From: Nitrospira lenta
GTDB taxonomy: Bacteria; Nitrospirota; Nitrospiria; Nitrospirales; Nitrospiraceae
NCBI GenBank assembly: GCA_945906715.1
Contig: CAMDRK010000001.1
Span: forward strand, 1 to 45,920
DNA: 45,920 bases
Reading direction: 5' to 3'
A model generated the notes under the pieces. The model saw only the letters and a list, made by a program, of their open reading frames with translations. It searched no databases and was not told the origin of the DNA. Positions 8,343-37,347 of this stretch are shown here, in pieces (position 1 is the stretch's first letter; each line of letters opens with the position of its first letter). Made by a program: the position numbers and the translations under genes.

Positions 8343-8975
8343 CTACTTGATCCGCTCCAGCGCTTCCTTAGATCGGCTCCTGACAGTTTGATCCCAATCC
8401 TCCTTCATGACAGTCGTCAGCTTCTCCTTCGCCTCACCGGCGCGCAAACGGCCCAATCCCAACGCCGCACTGGAACGGACATAGGCATGCTCGTCCTCCA
8501 ACGCCTTCAGTAGAAGAGGGATCACGGTTCTATCGTTCAGAGCCCCAAGGTAACTGGCCGCCATGCCTCGAATCCGGTGCCGCTCATCACCCAATGCCCG
8601 CTGCAGCGTCATCGCAAAGAGGTCTCGTAATCCTGGTATCGCTGACTCCAACCCATCGGCTCGATACTCATTCACCTCCATCACCGCAAAGGCGATCTCC
8701 AGCTTCTTCTCTTGTATCGTGGCCCGTTCGAACGCAACCAACAACTTCGCGCGTTCCCGCCGTTGCGCCCTGCGGCGGTTGATCGCCCGGATCAACAGAA
8801 ACAGCCCCGCCGCAATCACCAATCCCGCAAACGCCACGGGAATAGCTTGATCGATCACATAGTCCTGGGTATCGAACGATAGACGCTTCCACCCCCAGAC
8901 GCCGGCAATCACGATACCGAGGACAACCCCGATGGCAATCAGATTGGTCTGGCCCGATTCAGAACGAGTGCTCAT
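8343..8975 (-). CDS. membrane-anchored HEAT-repeat protein
   Basis: Start set at ATG 8975 (MSTRSESGQTNLIAIGVVLGIVIAGVWGW, a TM segment). C-terminal HEAT-like repeats read YLGALNDRTVIPLLLKALEDEHAYVRSSAALGLG. The upstream extension in the track has poor coding character. Confidence 0.7.
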   Translation of the reverse strand: MSTRSESGQTNLIAIGVVLGIVIAGVWGWKRLSFDTQDYVIDQAIPVAFAGLVIAAGLFLLIRAINRRRAQRRERAKLLVAFERATIQEKKLEIAFAVMEVNEYRADGLESAIPGLRDLFAMTLQRALGDERHRIRGMAASYLGALNDRTVIPLLLKALEDEHAYVRSSAALGLGRLRAGEAKEKLTTVMKEDWDQTVRSRSKEALERIK

Positions 8976-10260
8976 GGGGATGGCATCATAACAGGATGGG
9001 AGGGGTGGAAGGGAGGGGCCAGGTGGGGAGTGGCGAGGCAGCTGGCATGGTCTCTGTGCTCGCAGAGCCCCCACGATAAAGCGGTGGTCGCTCGATGCGC
9101 GCAGTGGAGGCCACACCAGCCGCCTCGCTGAATGCGTGTAAAGAATTGAGTTCACCCGAGATAGCACGTTCATGAATCGTGAACAACGTGATTTAGTGAA
9201 CGGAACCGACTAAATCAACCCCGACAGCGACTAGAATTCGCCATTGGCGCGGAGGAGGAGCTGAAAGAGGTCGTCGAGACGGCGTCGGAAGACGGCTTGC
9301 GACATTTTATTTGGCGGCCGACTAGAAATGCCTCACGGTCACTACACTTCTTCTTTTACCGAGTTATGGCCATGCCTGGCTCTGCGGTTGATAGAGATAC
9401 TTCTGGAGGGCCACGAAGACGTTTCCGTTGGGCCGACCTGCAAGTCCTGGAAGAAGACCGGACCGCTCCTCGCCGATCGTAAAACACTGCCAGACCTTCG
9501 AGTTCTAATTCAAGACTTCGTGGACGGCAGTGCAAGCTCAAGCAATGACCCCCACGAATTTTCCCCTCAGCCGGTCTCCAACAACCCTGTGGTTGTTCCC
9601 TTTAGGGAAGGGGCTCGCCCGACAAGAGCCGTTGCGTCTGGATGATCGCCTCCAGCAATGCGCTCCGTTCCTCTTGCAGCTTCTTCGAAGGCGGCACGCG
9701 CGCCACAAATCGTTCCGCCGCTACCGCCAAGGCCTGCAACGTCTCGGCCATGTCCCCCTGCCTTGGGGCAGGCGACAACAAGGCTTCACGTAACAGCGCG
9801 CGCCTCCTCCTGGGCCCAACATACATCTGCGGGGCGGTCGGGTTATCTTTTTCCAACTCGGGTCGTCGAAATACCGCCATAGCTCCTCCAACGCATCAGA
9901 CAACGAGAAATAATCCGCACACTGTACTCGATTCGCGTCGGCAATTGCATCGGGGCGTGAGCACAGGGGGAATAGGGTGCCAAGCGGTGCAGCAGAATTT
10001 CTGATGTGGACGATGCGTGAGACGGCGCGACTGGCGGAAAGGATTCCGATTAAGTAGCCTGGTTTCTTTTACCTCTCCCAACGGTCAATGACCGATGGCA
10101 AGACCCGACCCAGATGTTGCCGGTCAAGAGCAACTGGGTGGCAGGAATCGGTGATGCCTGCCCGCCCTCAGGGGAGAAGATAGAGAAAACGTGGGCTGTG
10201 CGGCGGGAAAAGACTCCCGACCTCGCTTTCTTTTCCCTGGTACATTTTCTTTCTCATTTA

Positions 10261-11877: not shown

Positions 11878-11961
11878 TTGGTCTGTCTAGTTGGCCAGAT
11901 CGGGAACCTCACCAGAGAAACCAGACAGATCAGATAGACCAAATAGACAAGAGAGACAAGG
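11878..11961. repeat. periodic-repeat hairpin, nonamer family, right-arm dominant
   Basis: TTGGTCTGTCTAGTTGGCC ... ACCAGAGAAACCAGACAGATCAGATAGACCAAATAGACAAGAGAGACAAGG. Confidence 0.75.
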
Positions 11962-11976: not shown

Positions 11977-12494
11977 TCAAGTCTTGAACCCGATGCGGCG
12001 GGATTTCGATGGAGGCGGTCCGATTAGTTGGCGGATGGCGTCAAAGAGGGACTGAATCTGTCCATCATGGCCACCTACCTTCCGTTCGAGTTGTGCCAAC
12101 TTGGTCGCCAACCCCCTATAGCTCGCCACCAGTTCCCGCAGCTTCACGAATGCTCGCATAATGCGATATTCACTTGGATCGCACGCTTGCTTCGCAACGC
12201 ACTGGACAGCATTGCGACACCTTGTTCCGTGAATACGTAGGGCGCGTATCGGCGACCTCCTCTCCCCCTGGGTTTTGATATTCCAATTTGAAATGTCAAA
12301 GCCGCTGCTTCTTGTGCGGATAATCGAAACATAAAGTCATCGGGAAACCGATCAGCATTCCTCTTTACGGCTTTATTGAGATTGAACGTCGTGACTCCAT
12401 ACAGTTTTGCAAGGTCCGAGTCCAGCATGACTCGATGACCACGGATCAGAAGAATTGCCTGCTCAATTCTTTCACGAGGAACCAGAACGCTCAT
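11977..12494 (-). pseudogene. ORF6N-domain DNA-binding protein split by a 1-nt frameshift
   Basis: ORF 12144-12494 ends ...RAIQVNIALCEHS*. The +1 frame continues MRAFVKLRELVASYRGLATKLAQLERK...RIGFKT (11977-12159), which is the usual C-terminal half of this family. The junction is near 12160-12163. Confidence 0.7.
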
Positions 12495-12619: not shown

Positions 12620-12964
12620 CTAGGCTTTCTCGCCAAGGGCTTCGAGGAGGCGGTCGATCTTTTGTTTCAGAACCGGCAAGTCTCGTTCGACCACATCCCA
12701 CACCAGTTGCAAATTGACTCCAAAATAATCGTGAATCAGTTTATCTCTCATGCCGGCGATGGGCTTCCACGCTATGTCAGAGTGAGCCTCTTTCAGCGTG
12801 ACGGATACGCGCTTGATTGCTTCCCCGATGATTTCGAGGTTACGCACAACCGCATCTTGGGTCTTTCGGTCGGAAAAGAAGCTCTCCTTTCCTGTTGCTG
12901 TATAGCTCATGATGTGCTGAATGGCGTCTCGAACGTGCAGGAGATAGATGCGGTCGTCCTTCAT
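12620..12964 (-). CDS. hepT: HepT-like (DUF86) toxin, HEPN RNase
   Basis: Carries the Rx4HxY motif in GMRDKLIHDYFGV. 114 aa. Its ATG overlaps the mntA stop by 4 nt. Confidence 0.85.
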   Translation of the reverse strand: MKDDRIYLLHVRDAIQHIMSYTATGKESFFSDRKTQDAVVRNLEIIGEAIKRVSVTLKEAHSDIAWKPIAGMRDKLIHDYFGVNLQLVWDVVERDLPVLKQKIDRLLEALGEKA

Positions 12965-13251: not shown

Positions 13252-13426
13252 TTTACGCTCCCTGAGAAGTATCTCGTCCTTGGAGGATACTGATTTACTC
13301 ACGGCCTGACAAGCAGTACTTGCTAAGCGTTGAGGCTCAGGAGTGCGCGCGTTCCTTCGGAAGGTCTTGGAACGACGCTTTTCCAATTCGCTATGCCTCA
13401 CTCTAGGGGATCGGCCGAGGTTGTCT

Positions 13427-13973
13427 TTTACTGCGCGCATCGAGCGATATACATGTTCCCTCCAAGCTTGCTCGTTTCTCTCTAGGGATGGGGGCTGACG
13501 GATCTTCCACTGCGCGCGTCCAACGAGGGCCTTCTCAGGCCGCGCGTTGCGCGAGCACAGAAGATCATCAGGCTCCATCCCCTCCTCTGTTCTGCGAGCA
13601 AGAAGGGCACCTGGCCACTCCTTCTCATCCCTCCAGGCTTGTTTACTGTACCTCTCTGGGAATGGCACTCGTAGTGGTCCAACTGCGCACGTCGAGCGAG
13701 CACATTCCGATCGTGCGCGCTCCACCTTCTACTTGGAGGGCGGGCTAGATGGTCTCCCACTGCGCGTGTCCAACGAGGGGTTTCTGAGGCCGCGCGTTGC
13801 ACGAGCACAGGAGACCGTCTAGCCTGACCTCTCATGCTCCCTCCAAGCTCGCTCGCTATTTTCTCAGGGATGGGGCCTGATTGATCTTCCACTGCGCGCG
13901 TCCAACGAGGGCCTTCCCAGGCCGCGCGTTGCGCGAGCACAGAAGATCATCAGGCCCCATCCCCTCCCCCTCT
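13427..13973 (+). repeat. tandem array of CACTGCGCGC-core palindromic elements (family PCORE)
   Basis: Three full A-type units lie at about 13452-13583, 13740-13825 and 13834-13973. Their core is CCACTGCGCG(C/T)GTCCAACGAGGG-N-GGCCGCGCGTTGC(G/A)CGAGCACAG. B-type variants lie at about 13427-13450 and 13660-13735 (ACTGCGC(G/A)C(A/G)TCGAGCGA). A shared leader CATG(T/C)TCCCTCCAAGCT(T/C)GCTCG is seen twice. Confidence 0.85.
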
Positions 13974-14008
13974 TGAATCTTCGTCCTAGTACGGACTACT
14001 CTTCCGCT

Positions 14009-14455
14009 ATGGAGTTACCGCATCTGAAGGATGATCCCTATCTGAAAGTGTTGCGGCCGCTCGTCGAGGCCTATCTTGCCTTTTGGCGTATCGACACCCG
14101 CCATATCAAATCTCTTCGGCTGACGCCCTCACAGTTCGACGTCATCGCCACGCTAGGAGATACGGAGGGCATGACCTGCTCAGAACTCTCTACCCAAACG
14201 CTCGTCACCAAAGGCACGCTCACCGGCGTCCTCGATCGCCTCGTCGCCAAAGGTCTGATCCGGCGGGATGCGATGAAGGGAGATCGCCGTTGCACCAAGA
14301 TCTCGTTAACCGTGAAAGGCGATGCGCTCTTTCGCAAGACTTTTGCAGCCCACTTGGCCTTTCTTCGCCCATTCTTTGAACGGGCCTTGAACCCCGAAGA
14401 AGTGAACCAAACGCGCGCGCTACTCCTGCGCCTTCGGGATAGCTTTCAACAATAG
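14009..14455 (+). CDS. MarR-family transcriptional regulator
   Basis: The winged-HTH region is LTPSQFDVIATLGDTEGMTCSELSTQTLVTKGTLTGVLDRLVAKGLIRR. ATG 14009 is preferred over TTG 13973, which lies inside a repeat. Confidence 0.85.
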   Translation: MELPHLKDDPYLKVLRPLVEAYLAFWRIDTRHIKSLRLTPSQFDVIATLGDTEGMTCSELSTQTLVTKGTLTGVLDRLVAKGLIRRDAMKGDRRCTKISLTVKGDALFRKTFAAHLAFLRPFFERALNPEEVNQTRALLLRLRDSFQQ

Positions 14456-14473: not shown

Positions 14474-15229
14474 ATGCGTTTAACAATTCTCGGCTCCGGC
14501 ACAAACATACATCCCACGCGCGCAGCCTCTGGCTACCTCGTCCGCACTGACCATACAATCCTATTGGACTTTGGCCCTCGCACACTGGCGAATCTCCTAA
14601 AGACCGGCGTGAACCGGCATCGGATCACCCATATTCTTTTCTCCCATTACCACGCCGATCACTTTTCAGACTTCATCACCTATTTCTTCGATGCGATGAT
14701 CTTTACGAAATATCAAGGAGGGACAAGGCCGCCGCTGACCGTCATCGGCCCTCGCGGGACGAAGAAGTTCTTCCAGACCCTCTTCACTACCATGCCAGGC
14801 TTTACACAGGCGCCGTTTGCGGTTCATTTCAAAGAAGTCGCCGATCGGGCGTTTATGATCGGAAAGACAACCGTGATTCCCCGAACGGTGACCCACACAG
14901 AGAACCTCCATTGCCTGGGATATCGAATTGAGTATGGAGGGAAGGCGCTGGCCTATTCCGGCGACTCGCAATACTGCGACAGCCTCGTGCGCCTCTGTGG
15001 AGACGCCGATCTCGCAGTGCTGGACTGCTCTTTCCCGGCAAGTCGACCGAACCCGGTTCATCTGCATGCCGGTCAATGTGGGCAGGTGGCTAAAGAAGCT
15101 GGAATCGGCCAACTCGTCTTATCGCACTTCTATCCAGTTACAGACCGATACAATGTGCGGGAACAGGCAGGGGAACCGTTCGGGGGAAAGATTATCGTCG
15201 GGCGGGACTTGCTCACAATCAAACTCTAG
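14474..15229 (+). CDS. MBL-fold metallo-hydrolase (RNase Z/BN-like)
   Basis: HxHxDH motif in SHYHADHFSD. 251 aa, with later His and Asp ligands present. Confidence 0.85.
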   Translation: MRLTILGSGTNIHPTRAASGYLVRTDHTILLDFGPRTLANLLKTGVNRHRITHILFSHYHADHFSDFITYFFDAMIFTKYQGGTRPPLTVIGPRGTKKFFQTLFTTMPGFTQAPFAVHFKEVADRAFMIGKTTVIPRTVTHTENLHCLGYRIEYGGKALAYSGDSQYCDSLVRLCGDADLAVLDCSFPASRPNPVHLHAGQCGQVAKEAGIGQLVLSHFYPVTDRYNVREQAGEPFGGKIIVGRDLLTIKL

Positions 15230-15246
15230 CAAGATGCTGAAAAGGT
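15229..15246 (+). repeat. P125 left-terminus fragment
   Basis: GCAAGATGCTGAAAAGGT begins on the G of the MBL gene's TAG. It runs straight into a nonamer hairpin. Confidence 0.5.
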
Positions 15247-15248
15247 AG

Positions 15249-15330
15249 CCTGTCTGTCTTGTTCATTTGGTCTGTCCGGTCTGTCTGGTTTGTGGACCAG
15301 ATAGACGGAATAGACCAGACAGACTGGTCC
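15249..15330. repeat. periodic-repeat hairpin, nonamer family
   Basis: CCTGTCTGTCTTGTTCATTTGGTCTGTCCGGTCTGTCTGGTTTGTGG / ACCAGATAGACGGAATAGACCAGACAGACTGGTCC. Lies between convergent genes. Confidence 0.85.
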
Positions 15331-15337
15331 GCGCCGG

Positions 15338-16225
15338 TTACAGTCCGCCTTCTTTGTTGTCGCAGCCCAGGATCTCGATAAACTTCGTGAGGCGGGCCTT
15401 TCTGAGGGGATCGTCGAGTTTGGCATAGATGGCTAAAAGGTTCTTGATCATGCGGGAGAGAATGGCGCGCACCGGGCTTTCTTGTAGATATTTCTCGTCG
15501 AACCCATAGCCGGCTTCGGTGAGAAACCGCTGGCAGTTTTTCTCGGTCAGCAATGCCCCCCCGTTAAAACAATCGACGAACACCTTGTAACGATCCGATT
15601 CGTACTTCACTAAGAAGTGCCCCGGCATTCCTATCCCATGAACCGGAAGGCCCAGCCGCTTCCCCACCAGGAGATACACCGTCGAAAGGCTGATCGGAAT
15701 ACCCGTCCGCCGGTCGATTACACAGTTGAGATAACTATTCTCCAACTCATAATAGTTCTTCGTGTTGCCTTTGAAGCCCTGTTCCGTGAAGAGGTAGCGG
15801 TTCAATGTCTTGATCGTTTCCTCCCCTGACGCCCGGGGACCGATCCGATCTTGTACTTCCTGTGCCATCTCATCGAGCTGTCGCCTATACGAGTCGACCG
15901 TCAGGGAGGGGTAGGCATAACGGGCGATCAGAAAAGCGCTGCGTTCAAGATCCATCGAGCCGTCCGGCAGCGCCGCCAGCTGTGTGAGTTCATCCTCGAG
16001 ATTCCCACCGCGGATTTCCTCGAGTATCGACACAAGGCGGTCGGCCATTTCCGGCTGTTCAATTTCCGCTTCCTGAAGCAGGGGAACCGCAGTGGGGCCG
16101 ATGTCGATGAGTTTTCCGCTGATGGTCTGGACGATCTTCTCGTCCTCATCGGCCAGCAGCCGGATCAGCGCTCGGATTTGGCTTTCGTTTATCAGCATGG
16201 TGGGATTCCCGGACAGCCCGCTCAT
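15338..16225 (-). CDS. transglutaminase-like / SirB1-type protein with helical repeats
   Basis: Core reads GIPISLSTVYLLVGKRLGLPVHGIGMPGHFLVKY, with a HEAT/TPR-like N-terminus. ATG 16225 shares one base with the permease stop (TGATG). Confidence 0.7.
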   Translation of the reverse strand: MSGLSGNPTMLINESQIRALIRLLADEDEKIVQTISGKLIDIGPTAVPLLQEAEIEQPEMADRLVSILEEIRGGNLEDELTQLAALPDGSMDLERSAFLIARYAYPSLTVDSYRRQLDEMAQEVQDRIGPRASGEETIKTLNRYLFTEQGFKGNTKNYYELENSYLNCVIDRRTGIPISLSTVYLLVGKRLGLPVHGIGMPGHFLVKYESDRYKVFVDCFNGGALLTEKNCQRFLTEAGYGFDEKYLQESPVRAILSRMIKNLLAIYAKLDDPLRKARLTKFIEILGCDNKEGGL

Positions 16226-17004
16226 CAGCCCATCGCCCGACGGAACACTTTGGCGCTCCCGTAGAGACAAAGGGCGTCGAAAATCACCATGACGATCACC
16301 ACCATCCCGACATGGGGGAGCGCCTCGGTCCAGCCTGTCAGAATCAAAGGCCGCACCGCGTCGATTGCCCAGGTCATGGGATTGAAGCGCGCCAGGAACC
16401 CCATCCAGGCAGGCATCCCCGCCAAGGGCACCAAGGCTGAACTCAAGAAAATCGCCGGAAGCGACAGAAACCCCAGGACCGAAAAGAAATCGCCGTGACT
16501 TTTCACGGAAAAGGCCATCGCCATGGAAATCGCCGTGAGACCGACGCCAAAGAGCATCCCGATCATCAAGATCGCCGCAATGCCAAGAAGCCCCGTGGCC
16601 GGCTGGACGCCGAACAGAAAGGCCACCCCGAGAATCACGAGCACTTGGAGTGAGGTAATCGTCATGACAAAAATAAACCGGCTCAGGATCACGGAGCTTC
16701 GATGGATCGGCGTGGTCATCAACCGTTCCAGAAACCCGTTCTCCTTGTCGAACAGCAGATCGACTCCCCCGGCGAGCCCATTGTTGAGCACCGTCATGAC
16801 GACGACGCCGGCCGTCAGGAAGCTGATGTAGTCCGGGGCCTGCGTTATTTGCATATCCGCGGCCCGCTGGAACAGGTTGCCGAAAAAGATCAGCCAGAAC
16901 AGCATCGGCTGCACGAGCGTGAACAACATACTGAACTTCTCACGGCTGAGCCGCTTGACCCACCGCATCGTCAGCGCACTGATTTCTTGCCAATACTCCG
17001 CCAC
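16225..17004 (-). CDS. ABC-2-type transporter permease
   Basis: About six hydrophobic segments and a typical ABC-2 N-terminus (RWVKRLSREKFSMLFTLVQPMLFWLIFFG). GTG 17004 is preceded by GGAGAG. Confidence 0.85.
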   Translation of the reverse strand: MAEYWQEISALTMRWVKRLSREKFSMLFTLVQPMLFWLIFFGNLFQRAADMQITQAPDYISFLTAGVVVMTVLNNGLAGGVDLLFDKENGFLERLMTTPIHRSSVILSRFIFVMTITSLQVLVILGVAFLFGVQPATGLLGIAAILMIGMLFGVGLTAISMAMAFSVKSHGDFFSVLGFLSLPAIFLSSALVPLAGMPAWMGFLARFNPMTWAIDAVRPLILTGWTEALPHVGMVVIVMVIFDALCLYGSAKVFRRAMG

Positions 17005-20842: not shown

Positions 20843-20972
20843 GGTCCCTCTCAAGCTCGCTCGTTATCCTCTTTTAGGGGTGGCCTGGGTTGGTCCCCAA
20901 CTGCGCGCATCGGACGAGCACAGTTTTATCGTGCGCGTTCTGCGAGCACGGGGGACCAACCAGGTTACCCCT
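20843..20972 (+). repeat. PCORE element, B-type, single copy
   Basis: Leader GGTCCCTCTCAAGCTCGCTCG, then AGGGGTGGCCTGGGTTGGTCCCC-AACTGCGCGCATCGGACGAGCACAG..GTGCGCGTTCTGCGAGCACG-GGGGACCAACCAGGTTACCCCT. Ends at the stop of the EcsC-like gene. Confidence 0.8.
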
Positions 20973-21751
20973 TACATCCGCTCATATTCCGCCCGCACCA
21001 ACTGCGGGGCATATGTGCGCTCTAACCTTCTGACAATGAAGTGGCCCCGTGCCATCTCCTGGAAATGGTCGATGAACAGGACGTTGATCACGACGCCTCC
21101 GGCAGCACCGATCACCGGGACAGCTTGCGCGGCGACCTTCTCGGAGACATTCACGCCGAAGCGCGTAGCCAATTGTGCGATGAGCCTGACGATTGCTGGC
21201 GCGCCCTCCTCCACCAAACCTCTCTGGGCAATGTACCCCGCAGCCTCTGAAACCGATTTCGCCAGAGCGGCACGCATCAGGAAGTAGGCAGATTCGCTCG
21301 CGTCATCGCTCTTACTGGGCCCGCCAAGAGCGAAGACCTCAAGGCAGGCCAGTTTGGCATCCGGCATCCGGAGATGTTCACCCTCACTGCGTGCGATATC
21401 TGCAATAGAGCGCAGCATGATCGTGGTGGAGAGGGGCAGTTCAAATGGGAGACCAAGCAATCCGAAGGCACCTCCCCCAGCACCGGTCGCCACCACGGCA
21501 AGCTTGTGCAGCAACTCCCAAGAGTTCGCCTGCGGTTTGTCGTCAAGCGTCAGCAATGCGGCCTGTAGTGCCGTCTCCAGCGACCTCCTTGTCGCCTCAT
21601 TGACGACCTGTGCCCATTTCTCCGGAAGCAGCTGGAGGGCCTTCTCAATCGGCATGCCGATCAATCCCGTGATCTTCGCAGCAAGGCCAGGATTCTCAAG
21701 GAGAGCCTTCGCGTATCGCAGAGCTTCCTTATCTTCGTATGATAGATTCAC
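20972..21751 (-). CDS. EcsC-family protein (assignment from memory)
   Basis: Contains LRYAKALLENPGLAAKITGLIGMPIEKALQLLPEKW and the Gly-rich VATGAGGGAFGLLGLPFELP. 259 aa. Confidence 0.6.
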   Translation of the reverse strand: MNLSYEDKEALRYAKALLENPGLAAKITGLIGMPIEKALQLLPEKWAQVVNEATRRSLETALQAALLTLDDKPQANSWELLHKLAVVATGAGGGAFGLLGLPFELPLSTTIMLRSIADIARSEGEHLRMPDAKLACLEVFALGGPSKSDDASESAYFLMRAALAKSVSEAAGYIAQRGLVEEGAPAIVRLIAQLATRFGVNVSEKVAAQAVPVIGAAGGVVINVLFIDHFQEMARGHFIVRRLERTYAPQLVRAEYERM

Positions 21752-24087: not shown

Positions 24088-24198
24088 TTGGTCTGTCTGG
24101 TCTGTTCGGTCTATCTGGTCTATTCGGTCTGTCTGGTTGCATGAGACTAACCAGATCGACCAGACAGACAAGAAAGACCGAACAGACCAGACAGACCC
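24088..24198. repeat. periodic-repeat hairpin, nonamer family, most regular copy
   Basis: Left arm is five 9-nt units: GGTCTGTCT GGTCTGTTC GGTCTATCT GGTCTATTC GGTCTGTCT GGTT. The loop is GCATGAGACT. The right arm is AACC AGATCGACC AGACAGACA AGAAAGACC GAACAGACC AGACAGACC. Confidence 0.9.
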
Positions 24199-37220: not shown

Positions 37221-37347
37221 GGGCTCGCTGTGTACGTCATCTTAGGATGGTCCGGTGAGTCCCCCACTGCGCGCGTCCAACGAGGGTCTTCTGAGACCGC
37301 GCGTTGCGCGAGCACAGGGGACTCACCGGACCATCCCCCTTCTAAGG
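37221..37347 (+). repeat. PCORE element, A-type, single copy
   Basis: CTTAGGATGGTCCGGTGAGTCCCC-CACTGCGCGCGTCCAACGAGGGTCTTCTGAGACCGCGCGTTGCGCGAGCACAG-GGGACTCACCGGACCATCCCCCTTCTAAGG. The stop of the SLT gene lies in the right outer stem. Confidence 0.85.

Follow-up and report, generated by a model that had tools for sequence, protein, structure and literature searches.

A Nitrospira-wide family of non-coding hairpin repeats forms a five-unit array at the border of an accessory islet upstream of marR

We analyzed a 45,920-nucleotide stretch of Nitrospira lenta DNA (GenBank assembly GCA_945906715.1, contig CAMDRK010000001.1, positions 1 to 45,920; hereafter the window), in which a non-coding region at 13406-13973, between the mntA-hepT gene pair and a marR gene, was found to hold five units that belong to a single palindromic family and all lie on the + strand. 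The explanation that we prefer, and to which we assign a probability of roughly 0.6, is that this cluster consists of non-coding hairpin repeats that occur throughout Nitrospira, are copied by way of a foldback of their '+' strand, act as polar obstacles to transcription and provide homology for the turnover of a neighbouring gene islet. In our assessment they constitute a new repeat family, organized like mosaic REP/BIME and ERIC elements, and are not a gene or an RNA leader. Under this explanation, copies would arise from the single-stranded '+' foldback, with a trans-acting factor recognizing the invariant, asymmetric core of the unit. Once placed, a unit would form an orientation-dependent obstacle to, or a processing site for, transcription, and sense units just upstream of promoters at both borders of the islet would shield the core genes from islet read-through. 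Finally, neighbouring DNA would be gained, lost and exchanged through homology between the direct repeats.

A full unit is a hairpin of ~100 nt. Its outer stem spans 20-23 bp, the arms being complementary and their sequence varying between copies, and encloses a 52-nt core, CACTGCGCGYGTCCAACGAGG-(loop)-GCGCGTTGCRCGAGCACAG, which is nearly invariant, mismatches and UC bulge included. The core helix is imperfect, with fixed irregularities i.e., a CAC/CA internal loop, a G/A mismatch and the UC bulge. Many units are preceded by a C-rich 5' leader of 15-35 nt (consensus CATGMTCCCTCCAAGCTYGCTCGTTATCTCTTCAG) and are followed on the 3' side by a short C-rich trailer (CCCCTCC...). B-type units are sisters of the A-type units, with the same box spacing of 42 nt and different apical parts.

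By repeat search, a 102-nt unit was present in three copies in the array (13484-13585, 13734-13835 and 13866-13967), and the CACTGCGCGC box in five, all on the + strand (13424, 13503, 13676, 13753 and 13885); the repeated box is 24 nt long and contains ACTGCGCGC. Four copies of the 22-nt core word CACTGCGCGCGTCCAACGAGGG are present in the window, compared with 0.01 expected by chance, the fourth being at 37265. When folded, the region was far more stable than shuffled sequence on either strand (z = -7.7 and -7.6). The repeat search, the core word and the folding thus bear out the original prediction that the region is a non-coding array whose units belong to one palindromic family and share one orientation. 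Its further statement, that the array comprises three A units and two B variants, holds for the A units; the first of the B variants is the left half of a split host unit and the second is a truncated B3 unit. Similarly, a leader of about 35 nt had been ascribed to all A units and is common to A1 and A3 only, A2 having a different linker of 15 nt. The features of the array and of the rest of the window are listed in Table 1, in which the scores are those of a covariance model built from 62 diverse copies.

Table 1. Repeat units, genes and candidate promoters in the window
Feature	Position	Strand	Description
B2-type unit	9030..9130	-	covariance model 49.3 bits; 55 nt upstream of the HEAT-repeat gene start, same direction
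HepT	12620-12964	-	Pfam
MntA, 97 amino acids	12961-13254	-	Pfam
Candidate sigma-70-like mntA-hepT promoter	13284..13312	-	TTGTCA, 17-nt spacer, TATCCT; consensus match only
Host B1-type unit, left half	13406..13447	+	degenerate outer-stem arm and left box TTACTGCGCGCATCGAGCGA
Leader of A1	13448..13484	+	TATACATGTTCCCTCCAAGCTTGCTCGTTTCTCTCTA, C-rich, G-poor; direct repeat
Unit A1	13485..13581	+	type-1 hairpin, outer stem GGGATGGGGGCTGACGGATCTTC / GAAGATCATCAGGCTCCATCCC, 52-nt core 13508-13559; covariance model 109.6 bits
Host B1-type unit, right half	13590..13621	+	right box CTGCGAGCA and arm AGAAGGGCACCTGGCCACTCC; closes the nest around A1
B3-type unit	13626..13723	+	own leader TCCCTCCAGGCTTGTTTACTGTACCTCTCT, left arm GGGAATGGCACTCGTAGTGGTCCA, left box AACTGCGCACGTCGAGCGA, apex
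Unit A2	13724..13832	+	type-2 hairpin, 15-nt linker ACCTTCTACTTGGAG, stem GGAGGGCGGGCTAGATGGTCTCC / GGAGACCGTCTAGCC; covariance model 98.7 bits
Unit A3	13833..13973	+	leader 13833-13865, type-1 hairpin 13866-13963, C-rich trailer; covariance model 112.2 bits
Putative marR promoter	13973..14002	+	TTGAAT, 18-nt spacer, TACTCT; ATG 6 nt on
MarR	14009-14455	+	Pfam
MBL-fold protein	14474-15229	+	Pfam
Solitary B1-type unit with leader	20874..20975	+	covariance model 62.4 bits
Solitary type-3 A unit	37241..37341	+	covariance model 109.6 bits

The array is a mosaic. A1 and its leader, which is conserved at 80-99% across 55 type-1 copies, are nested in the apical loop of a host B1 unit. The left half of this host fits the B1 consensus of intact units, GGGGAGTGGCCAAGGCTGCCCTTT-ACTGCGCGCATCGAACGA, its right arm is shared with 26 intact B1 units upstream of marR, and the same split layout appears in the consensus of the major family. 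The B3-type unit is truncated at its right box, where A2 starts, so that the two are fused; the model matches it only weakly (13691-13723), and intact homologues were found in L123, L131 and L159 (L-numbers are the labels of the Nitrospira loci compared). The core of A2 carries a compensatory CGTG/CACG variant. A3 is 95% identical to A1 and abuts the -35 box of marR. With respect to their outer stems, A1 and A3 have GGGATGGGGSCTGA..GATCTTC, A2 has GGAGGGCGGGCTAGATGGTCTCC, and the copy at 37241 has GGATGGTCCGGTGAGTCCCC.

The family extends well beyond this locus. In the window, the covariance model found eight units or half-units at four loci in 46 kb; extrapolated from these four loci, and if their density is typical, a few hundred copies would be expected in each genome. 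In GTDB genomes, scanned at one genome per species, a 21-nt core word was matched exactly in more than 117 stretches, and all of the records listed are Nitrospira, Nitrospiraceae or Nitrospirota. Of 128 crude matches, 97 fall outside called open reading frames (ORFs). A search of the whole window against Rfam 15 gave no family at gathering score and, at E up to 10, only chance matches to miRNA-hairpin models. Our literature search yielded no description of a Nitrospira hairpin repeat family, nor of such repeats in the phylum; in the RepRanger paper, palindromes of N. moscoviensis are counted only.

A chance local tandem duplication of no wider meaning would account for the near identity of A1 and A3. 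It is hardly credible, however, given that the family is genus-wide with further copies in the window, that units of different types lie between A1 and A3, and that the position of the unit is conserved in 55 of the 79 marR loci described below. The array is therefore not a purely local duplication, an outcome that would have counted against the original prediction.

The units have also given rise to spurious genes. A 254-amino-acid extension of MntA and several ORFs of 85-152 amino acids proved, as originally suspected, to be translations of the repeats: the ORFs run through the units, and the MntA confirmed by Pfam is 97 amino acids long. The resulting pseudo-peptides cluster as a spurious 'protein family' across unrelated loci.

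The palindrome itself is under clear structural constraint. In an alignment of the 62 copies, 26 pairs were predicted, 13 of them with compensatory changes, and 96.9% of cells were paired, as against 25-57% when the partners were slid by one to three columns; none of 500 column shuffles reached any of five measures. A switch from C-G to U-A is seen at one core pair in nine sequences and at an apical pair in 15. Additional compensated exchanges occur in the cores of the B-type units (CAACG/CGTTG to GAACG/CGTTC, and CGCG to GCCG/CGG). The median arm-pairing score was 32 for an arm and its own partner, and 16 for arms of other copies. Moreover, the stems of all unit types can be aligned (GGG-R-GG-SC-YRG...), so they go back to a single ancestor through compensated change and did not originate by capture of adjoining DNA.

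The two strands do not fold equally well. Folding the '+' strand gives 139 outer-stem G-U pairs and folding its complement gives 75, and the '+' strand is the more stable in 77 of 98 distinct stems. Grouped into 26 stem families, the '+' strand folds better in 19 and the '-' strand in four (Wilcoxon p = 0.0004). This preference is independent of the direction of the flanking genes. In 86 of 124 cases it is the C-rich strand that carries the '+' strand, and a mutation bias from C to T would therefore produce the opposite folding asymmetry. We take these data to reflect selection for a '+' strand that folds back on itself, be it RNA or single-stranded DNA, when copies are made.

The strong covariation, the invariant core and the better folding of the '+' strand through G-U pairs might also be expected if the units were functional structured '+' strand RNAs, e.g., a multicopy small RNA or a protein-binding RNA, maintained by selection at the level of the host. 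Whole-unit identity of ~87% across species with no species-specific homogenization would fit such an RNA, as would the abundance of repeat-derived contigs in the metatranscriptome, with a summed depth of 745-1113 at 13403-13480 compared with 10-150 on hepT/mntA. That depth, however, is a sum over many copies and populations in which the strand is not distinguished. In addition, no Rfam family was matched, no promoter-like sequence was seen in the leader, and in most tandem contexts the units are antisense to the surrounding genes. Chimeric units that cannot pair persist, and units nest in and truncate one another, which would not be tolerable for a functional RNA gene. We therefore regard an RNA function of this kind as improbable.

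We further considered whether the array serves mntA-hepT or marR as a riboregulator or as an extended, structured 5' leader. In its favor, the array lies between both genes, is highly structured and places a unit just upstream of marR. On the marR side, however, a block directly after the last unit, TTGAMY-N17/18-TAYTCT followed by an ATG at 6 nt, is kept in all 79 marR loci, including 11 that have no unit, and sets the outer limit of the array. The promoter scan made no call at this site; we infer that the block is the marR promoter. With the ATG only 6 nt past the -10 box, the marR mRNA is likely to be leaderless or nearly so. Between the -35 and -10 boxes there is a possible MarR operator, TTCTAGT-N4-ACTAYTC, which the 79 loci have kept.

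On the other side, the candidate sigma-70-like site for mntA-hepT falls between the array and mntA, i.e., downstream of the array. With both candidate promoters outside it, the array would lie between two divergent promoters and would not be a leader. The RNA data, which come from ribosomal RNA-depleted metatranscriptome contigs covering the flanks of the array with the strand not distinguished, point the same way: contig depth is 40-440 for marR (X23), drops to 10 at 13989-14010 between the array and marR, and rises inside marR. Furthermore, hepT-mntA is missing from most of the loci that bear an array, and the same units are found at hundreds of unrelated sites elsewhere. The promoter-like site and the dip in RNA depth thus speak against the earlier proposal of a structured mntA-hepT leader, and a leader of either gene seems to us very improbable.

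Neither the promoter scan nor inspection of the consensus revealed a sigma-70 promoter in the unit leader. We also discarded a reading of the minus-strand leader, GGAGGGAGCATG, as a ribosome-binding site: it precedes only an ORF of eight codons in the window, and sucD and the MOFRL gene do not use it.

The marR locus is variable on one side only. A metagenome scan with MarR identified 80 orthologous loci, 79 of which were analyzed. Their conserved backbone comprises a metallophosphoesterase gene, a HEAT-repeat gene (8343-8975, - strand), a variable stretch, marR, the MBL gene and a gene at 15338-16270. The variable stretch ranges from about 0.2 kb, with only one or two units, to about 6 kb, and its cargo differs between loci. 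Cargo genes of the window recur in various combinations, i.e., ORF6N/PDC-S05, HNH, MazG-like, HepT-MntA and an ORF with no known identity, and the islet of the window scores as candidate defence genes. These data show that the array locus is a hot spot at which small defence and accessory genes are exchanged between lineages. They also support the proposal that the array marks the marR-side border of an accessory segment, since the marR/MBL side is constant and the DNA from the array to the HEAT gene is variable across the 79 loci. The lower GC content attributed to this segment is only modest (51-52% at 10-13 kb, compared with about 55-60% elsewhere).

Of the 79 loci, 57 have a unit just upstream of marR, with a core that ends 64-72 nt before the ATG in 55 of them. 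All 84 units of the marR arrays are oriented as marR is. By type, the marR-proximal unit is B1 in 26 loci, A in 13, B2 in six, AB and B3 in four each, A2 in three and another type in one. The 11 more distant loci, with a MarR that is 80-87% identical, carry only a short divergent spacer and no unit. At the opposite end, a unit oriented as the HEAT-repeat gene and just upstream of it is present in the window and in at least nine orthologous loci. Together with the marR-side units, these bracket the islet with inverted units whose trailers face the conserved genes.

Such an arrangement might suggest that the hairpins are single-strand DNA recombination sites, like integron attC or the REPs served by RAYT, that actively capture defence cargo. 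Besides the inverted units that bracket an islet whose cargo differs between lineages, this proposal could draw on the strand-specific folding, on the conserved extrahelical features of the core and on the presence of units on both sides of hepT-mntA in L128. However, no integrase or HUH gene was found in the window, of which 20 ORFs were scanned with Pfam, or recurring at the loci, the cargo genes of the window islet are not separated by units, and the unit is conserved in its center and variable in its outer part, the reverse of attC. Most units lie beside housekeeping genes with no cargo at all, and 'empty' hot spots carry units too. We consider active capture quite unlikely.

Within the islet of the window, the ORF6N gene (12144-12494) and a 60-amino-acid ORF at 11977-12159 (- strand) give successive matches to one candidate defence protein, PDC-S05, and they look like a single gene split by a frameshift or a stop codon.

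Away from the hot spot, the units keep ordinary company. Among the nearest ORFs of 150 dispersed units, Pfam matches were to housekeeping proteins, e.g., sigma-54 activators, PolA, SucD, PurA, TrpA, FKBP and DnaJ; only two were Gp49/HigB-like, and no transposase was among the leading Pfam families. All-against-all clustering of about 900 ORFs from 117 loci yielded no recurrent neighbour gene. An association of the family with toxin-antitoxin loci, as had been suggested, is therefore not borne out: the dispersed units adjoin ordinary genes, and only four loci (the window, L128, L136 and L182) have HepT-MntA next to the array.

In the window, the 3' foot of the unit at 20874-20975 (20972-20975) overlaps the TAA stop codon of a minus-strand EcsC-family gene. 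The unit at 37241-37341 occupies a 131-nt spacer between two minus-strand genes, for an SLT transglycosylase and a MOFRL glycerate kinase (all three genes assigned by Pfam), and is antisense to both; its end is 4 nt away from the SLT stop codon. It is common for units to adjoin the stop codons of opposite-strand genes, with a median unit-gene distance of 24-51 nt.

The orientation of the units relative to transcription is not random. Between genes of the same direction, seven units were sense and 31 antisense in spacers under 350 nt, 12 were sense and 26 antisense in spacers of 350-700 nt, and nine were sense and six antisense in spacers over 700 nt, counts that come from a crude gene caller and of which the last class is small. 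Between convergent genes, 16 units were in the '+' and 15 in the '-' orientation. This gradient with spacer length favours an effect tied to transcription over one tied to replication, and the antisense bias in short tandem spacers suggests that a unit affects transcription in an orientation-dependent manner. If sense units hinder or process transcripts, they would be excluded from operons, and we infer that units inside operons are for this reason tolerated only when antisense. A role as intrinsic terminators finds little encouragement: there is one weak site in the region, no more than in shuffled sequence, and the trailers are C-rich (CCCCTCCTCTG) with no T-runs.

Comparison of orthologous sites revealed how the units turn over. 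They occur singly, in head-to-tail arrays or nested in one another's apical loops, and the consensus of the major family is itself a nest. The locus of Nitrospira sp. CG24C (L064) is 95-97% identical to the window on the marR side and lacks A3 and hepT-mntA, the array running into the ORF6N gene. A unit is present in the sucC-sucD spacer of four species, antisense to the operon each time; here L075 has an extra B unit with its leader relative to L106, flanked by a 7-bp direct repeat. In the convergent spacer between the MBL gene and the gene at 15338, L166 has a solitary unit and L162 and L120 have none. In L158 and L163 the same unit as in L166 is present, and its apical loop contains a nested B1 unit together with a leader, bordered by a direct repeat of 5 bp. 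At the site orthologous to the 37241 copy, L024 has a different, unrelated repeat. Of the marR-proximal units, 12 of 57 are chimeras whose non-matching arms derive from different types, a signature of recombination between direct repeats. Type-1 identity is about 87% between species and about 90% within a genome (only four pairs); the two values being so close, the family appears to be ancient and under constraint rather than the outcome of a recent burst.

Several other small elements were seen at these sites. In L096 (1017-2046), the sucC-sucD spacer consists of a unit, a short truncated copy of the start of sucD, an inserted gene and then the real sucD. In L138, L150, L157, L172 and L179, an element of ~55 nt with the hairpin GGCACGCCGAGACGTGCC lies inside the left box of the marR-proximal unit; it is also present in L158/L163. 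A second, unrelated palindromic repeat family is represented in the window at 15249-15330, 11880-11957, 24089-24197 and 882-998. Its arms are runs of a 9-nt unit (TGGTCTGTC / GACAGACCA), which yield 'PDRPDRPN' in ORF translations; one copy is 3' of the MBL gene and one is within the low-GC islet. Similar sequence is inserted in the apical loops of A units in L016 and L108, and in L125 it takes up the MBL spacer. There is also a third motif, which is short (CAGGATGCTGAAAAAGG; in reverse complement, CCTTTTTCAGCATCCTG) and occurs at 15229-15250 in the window, downstream of MBL in L158, L163 and L166, and in the right flanks of many units (L008-L117). It begins directly after stop codons, often has an inverted copy a few hundred nt away and often adjoins hairpin units; possible identities are the terminal repeat of some other small element and a signal resembling a terminator.

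A number of observations weigh against our preferred explanation of copied, transcription-hindering and recombining repeats. An enzyme that mobilizes the units was not found, and no transposase family recurs beside them. In what is a weak test, a tblastn search of 1.39 Mb of Nitrospira DNA with an approximate sequence of the RAYT YafM gave nothing, the best E being 1.7. An IS608-like model, in which the lagging-strand template is used, was rejected because the orientation of the units relative to GC skew is opposite to its prediction (86/124). The copies are not recent, and ongoing transposition explains their identities no better than constraint over the long term does. At the two clean insertions the direct repeats measure 5 and 7 bp; a single transposase would not typically leave two lengths, and microhomology could be their source. 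The persistence of chimeric units with unpaired arms at the marR site implies that an intact hairpin is not required there. Lastly, the role as a transcription barrier is based only on orientation statistics from crude ORF calls, and no U-tract follows the hairpin.

It is also conceivable, although on balance unlikely, that the 52-nt core is the recognition site of a new Nitrospira system that works on folded single strands (DNA or RNA) and is distinct from both RAYTs and integron integrases. If so, units would be copied into hairpin loops and beside promoters by a core-recognizing system that builds the borders of defence hot spots, and this system would be a new hairpin-targeting mechanism of mobility or recombination in place of a passive repeat.

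The family is of practical consequence. Nitrospira are the main nitrite oxidizers, complete ammonia oxidizers among them, of soils, fresh water and water treatment, and most of their genomes are assembled from metagenomes. A repeat of 100-250 nt in an estimated few hundred copies breaks such assemblies, creates false ORFs such as the 254-amino-acid 'MntA' and can pass for regulatory RNA. With the family consensus known, it can be masked and annotated. The family also serves as a marker for intergenic hot spots that exchange defence and toxin-antitoxin genes, and its orientation bias in operons, combined with strand-specific folding, makes it a testable case of interaction between repeats and transcription.

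With regard to known systems, CRISPR arrays were readily dismissed, the units being ~100 nt long, spaced at 250 and 132 nt and different from one another. The resemblance to attC sites is closer, in that both are folded single-strand hairpins with strand selectivity and conserved unpaired bases, located beside small accessory or toxin-antitoxin cassettes. However, attC keeps its outer R/L boxes and varies centrally, whereas the Nitrospira units do the reverse, and attC follows each cassette and needs a nearby intI/attI, neither of which is in this islet; no integrase was detected among the 20 ORFs of the window scanned with Pfam. A direct match was also rejected: GTCCAAC fits RYYYAAC, but its partner GTTGCGC fails GTTRRRY, the B cores fail too, and the boxes are central and not terminal. 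NIMEs and 'minimal mobile elements' likewise place repeat arrays between conserved genes where strains differ in accessory genes. In contrast to the Nitrospira units, however, NIMEs are 20-bp dRS3 repeats flanking RS units and not long hairpins, and they are exchanged by natural transformation, which to our knowledge has not been described in Nitrospira.

ERIC/IRU elements, found in Enterobacteriaceae and Vibrio, are imperfect palindromes of about 127 bp, and the Yersinia YPAL and Neisseria Correia elements are similarly MITE-like. The Nitrospira units lack the TA target and the terminal inverted repeats of the Correia type, and they differ from classical, DDE-type MITEs in their variable outer arms and in insertion direct repeats that are not of fixed length (7 and 5 bp). 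They share with ERIC a hairpin of ~100-130 nt, an intergenic and often co-transcribed location, many dispersed copies across related species and larger variants that result from insertions at fixed positions within the element. In Yersinia, ERIC has been reported to affect flanking mRNA in an orientation-dependent way, and the Nitrospira units show an orientation bias in short tandem spacers. On the other hand, the sequence and the phylum are different, and the Nitrospira units form direct arrays and nests and have a one-sided 5' leader. The whole element is conserved in ERIC, whereas in Nitrospira the center is invariant and the outer stem is variable but compensated.

REP/BIME elements of E. 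coli and Pseudomonas, with REPs of 20-40 nt and a RAYT transposase, act as mRNA stabilizers, Rho-dependent attenuators and recombination substrates, and are insertion targets for other elements. Like them, the Nitrospira repeats form intergenic mosaic clusters of palindromic units and conserved linkers (here A, B1 and B3 with leader, linker and trailer), are imperfect palindromes with conserved asymmetries, and are situated after stop codons and between the genes of operons. Unlike REPs, they are ~100 nt long and have a 5' foot of YTMAG|GG with no GTAG-type tetranucleotide, and whereas BIME units alternate in orientation, those of Nitrospira are all on the same strand (five in the array of the window and 84 in the marR arrays). 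The mode of copying, the transcriptional polarity and the islet turnover proposed above match the behaviour ascribed to REP/BIME and ERIC elements. Taken together, several defining features of REP/BIME and of ERIC are each absent, and the Nitrospira units are thus best described as a new family of that general kind that is a member of neither.

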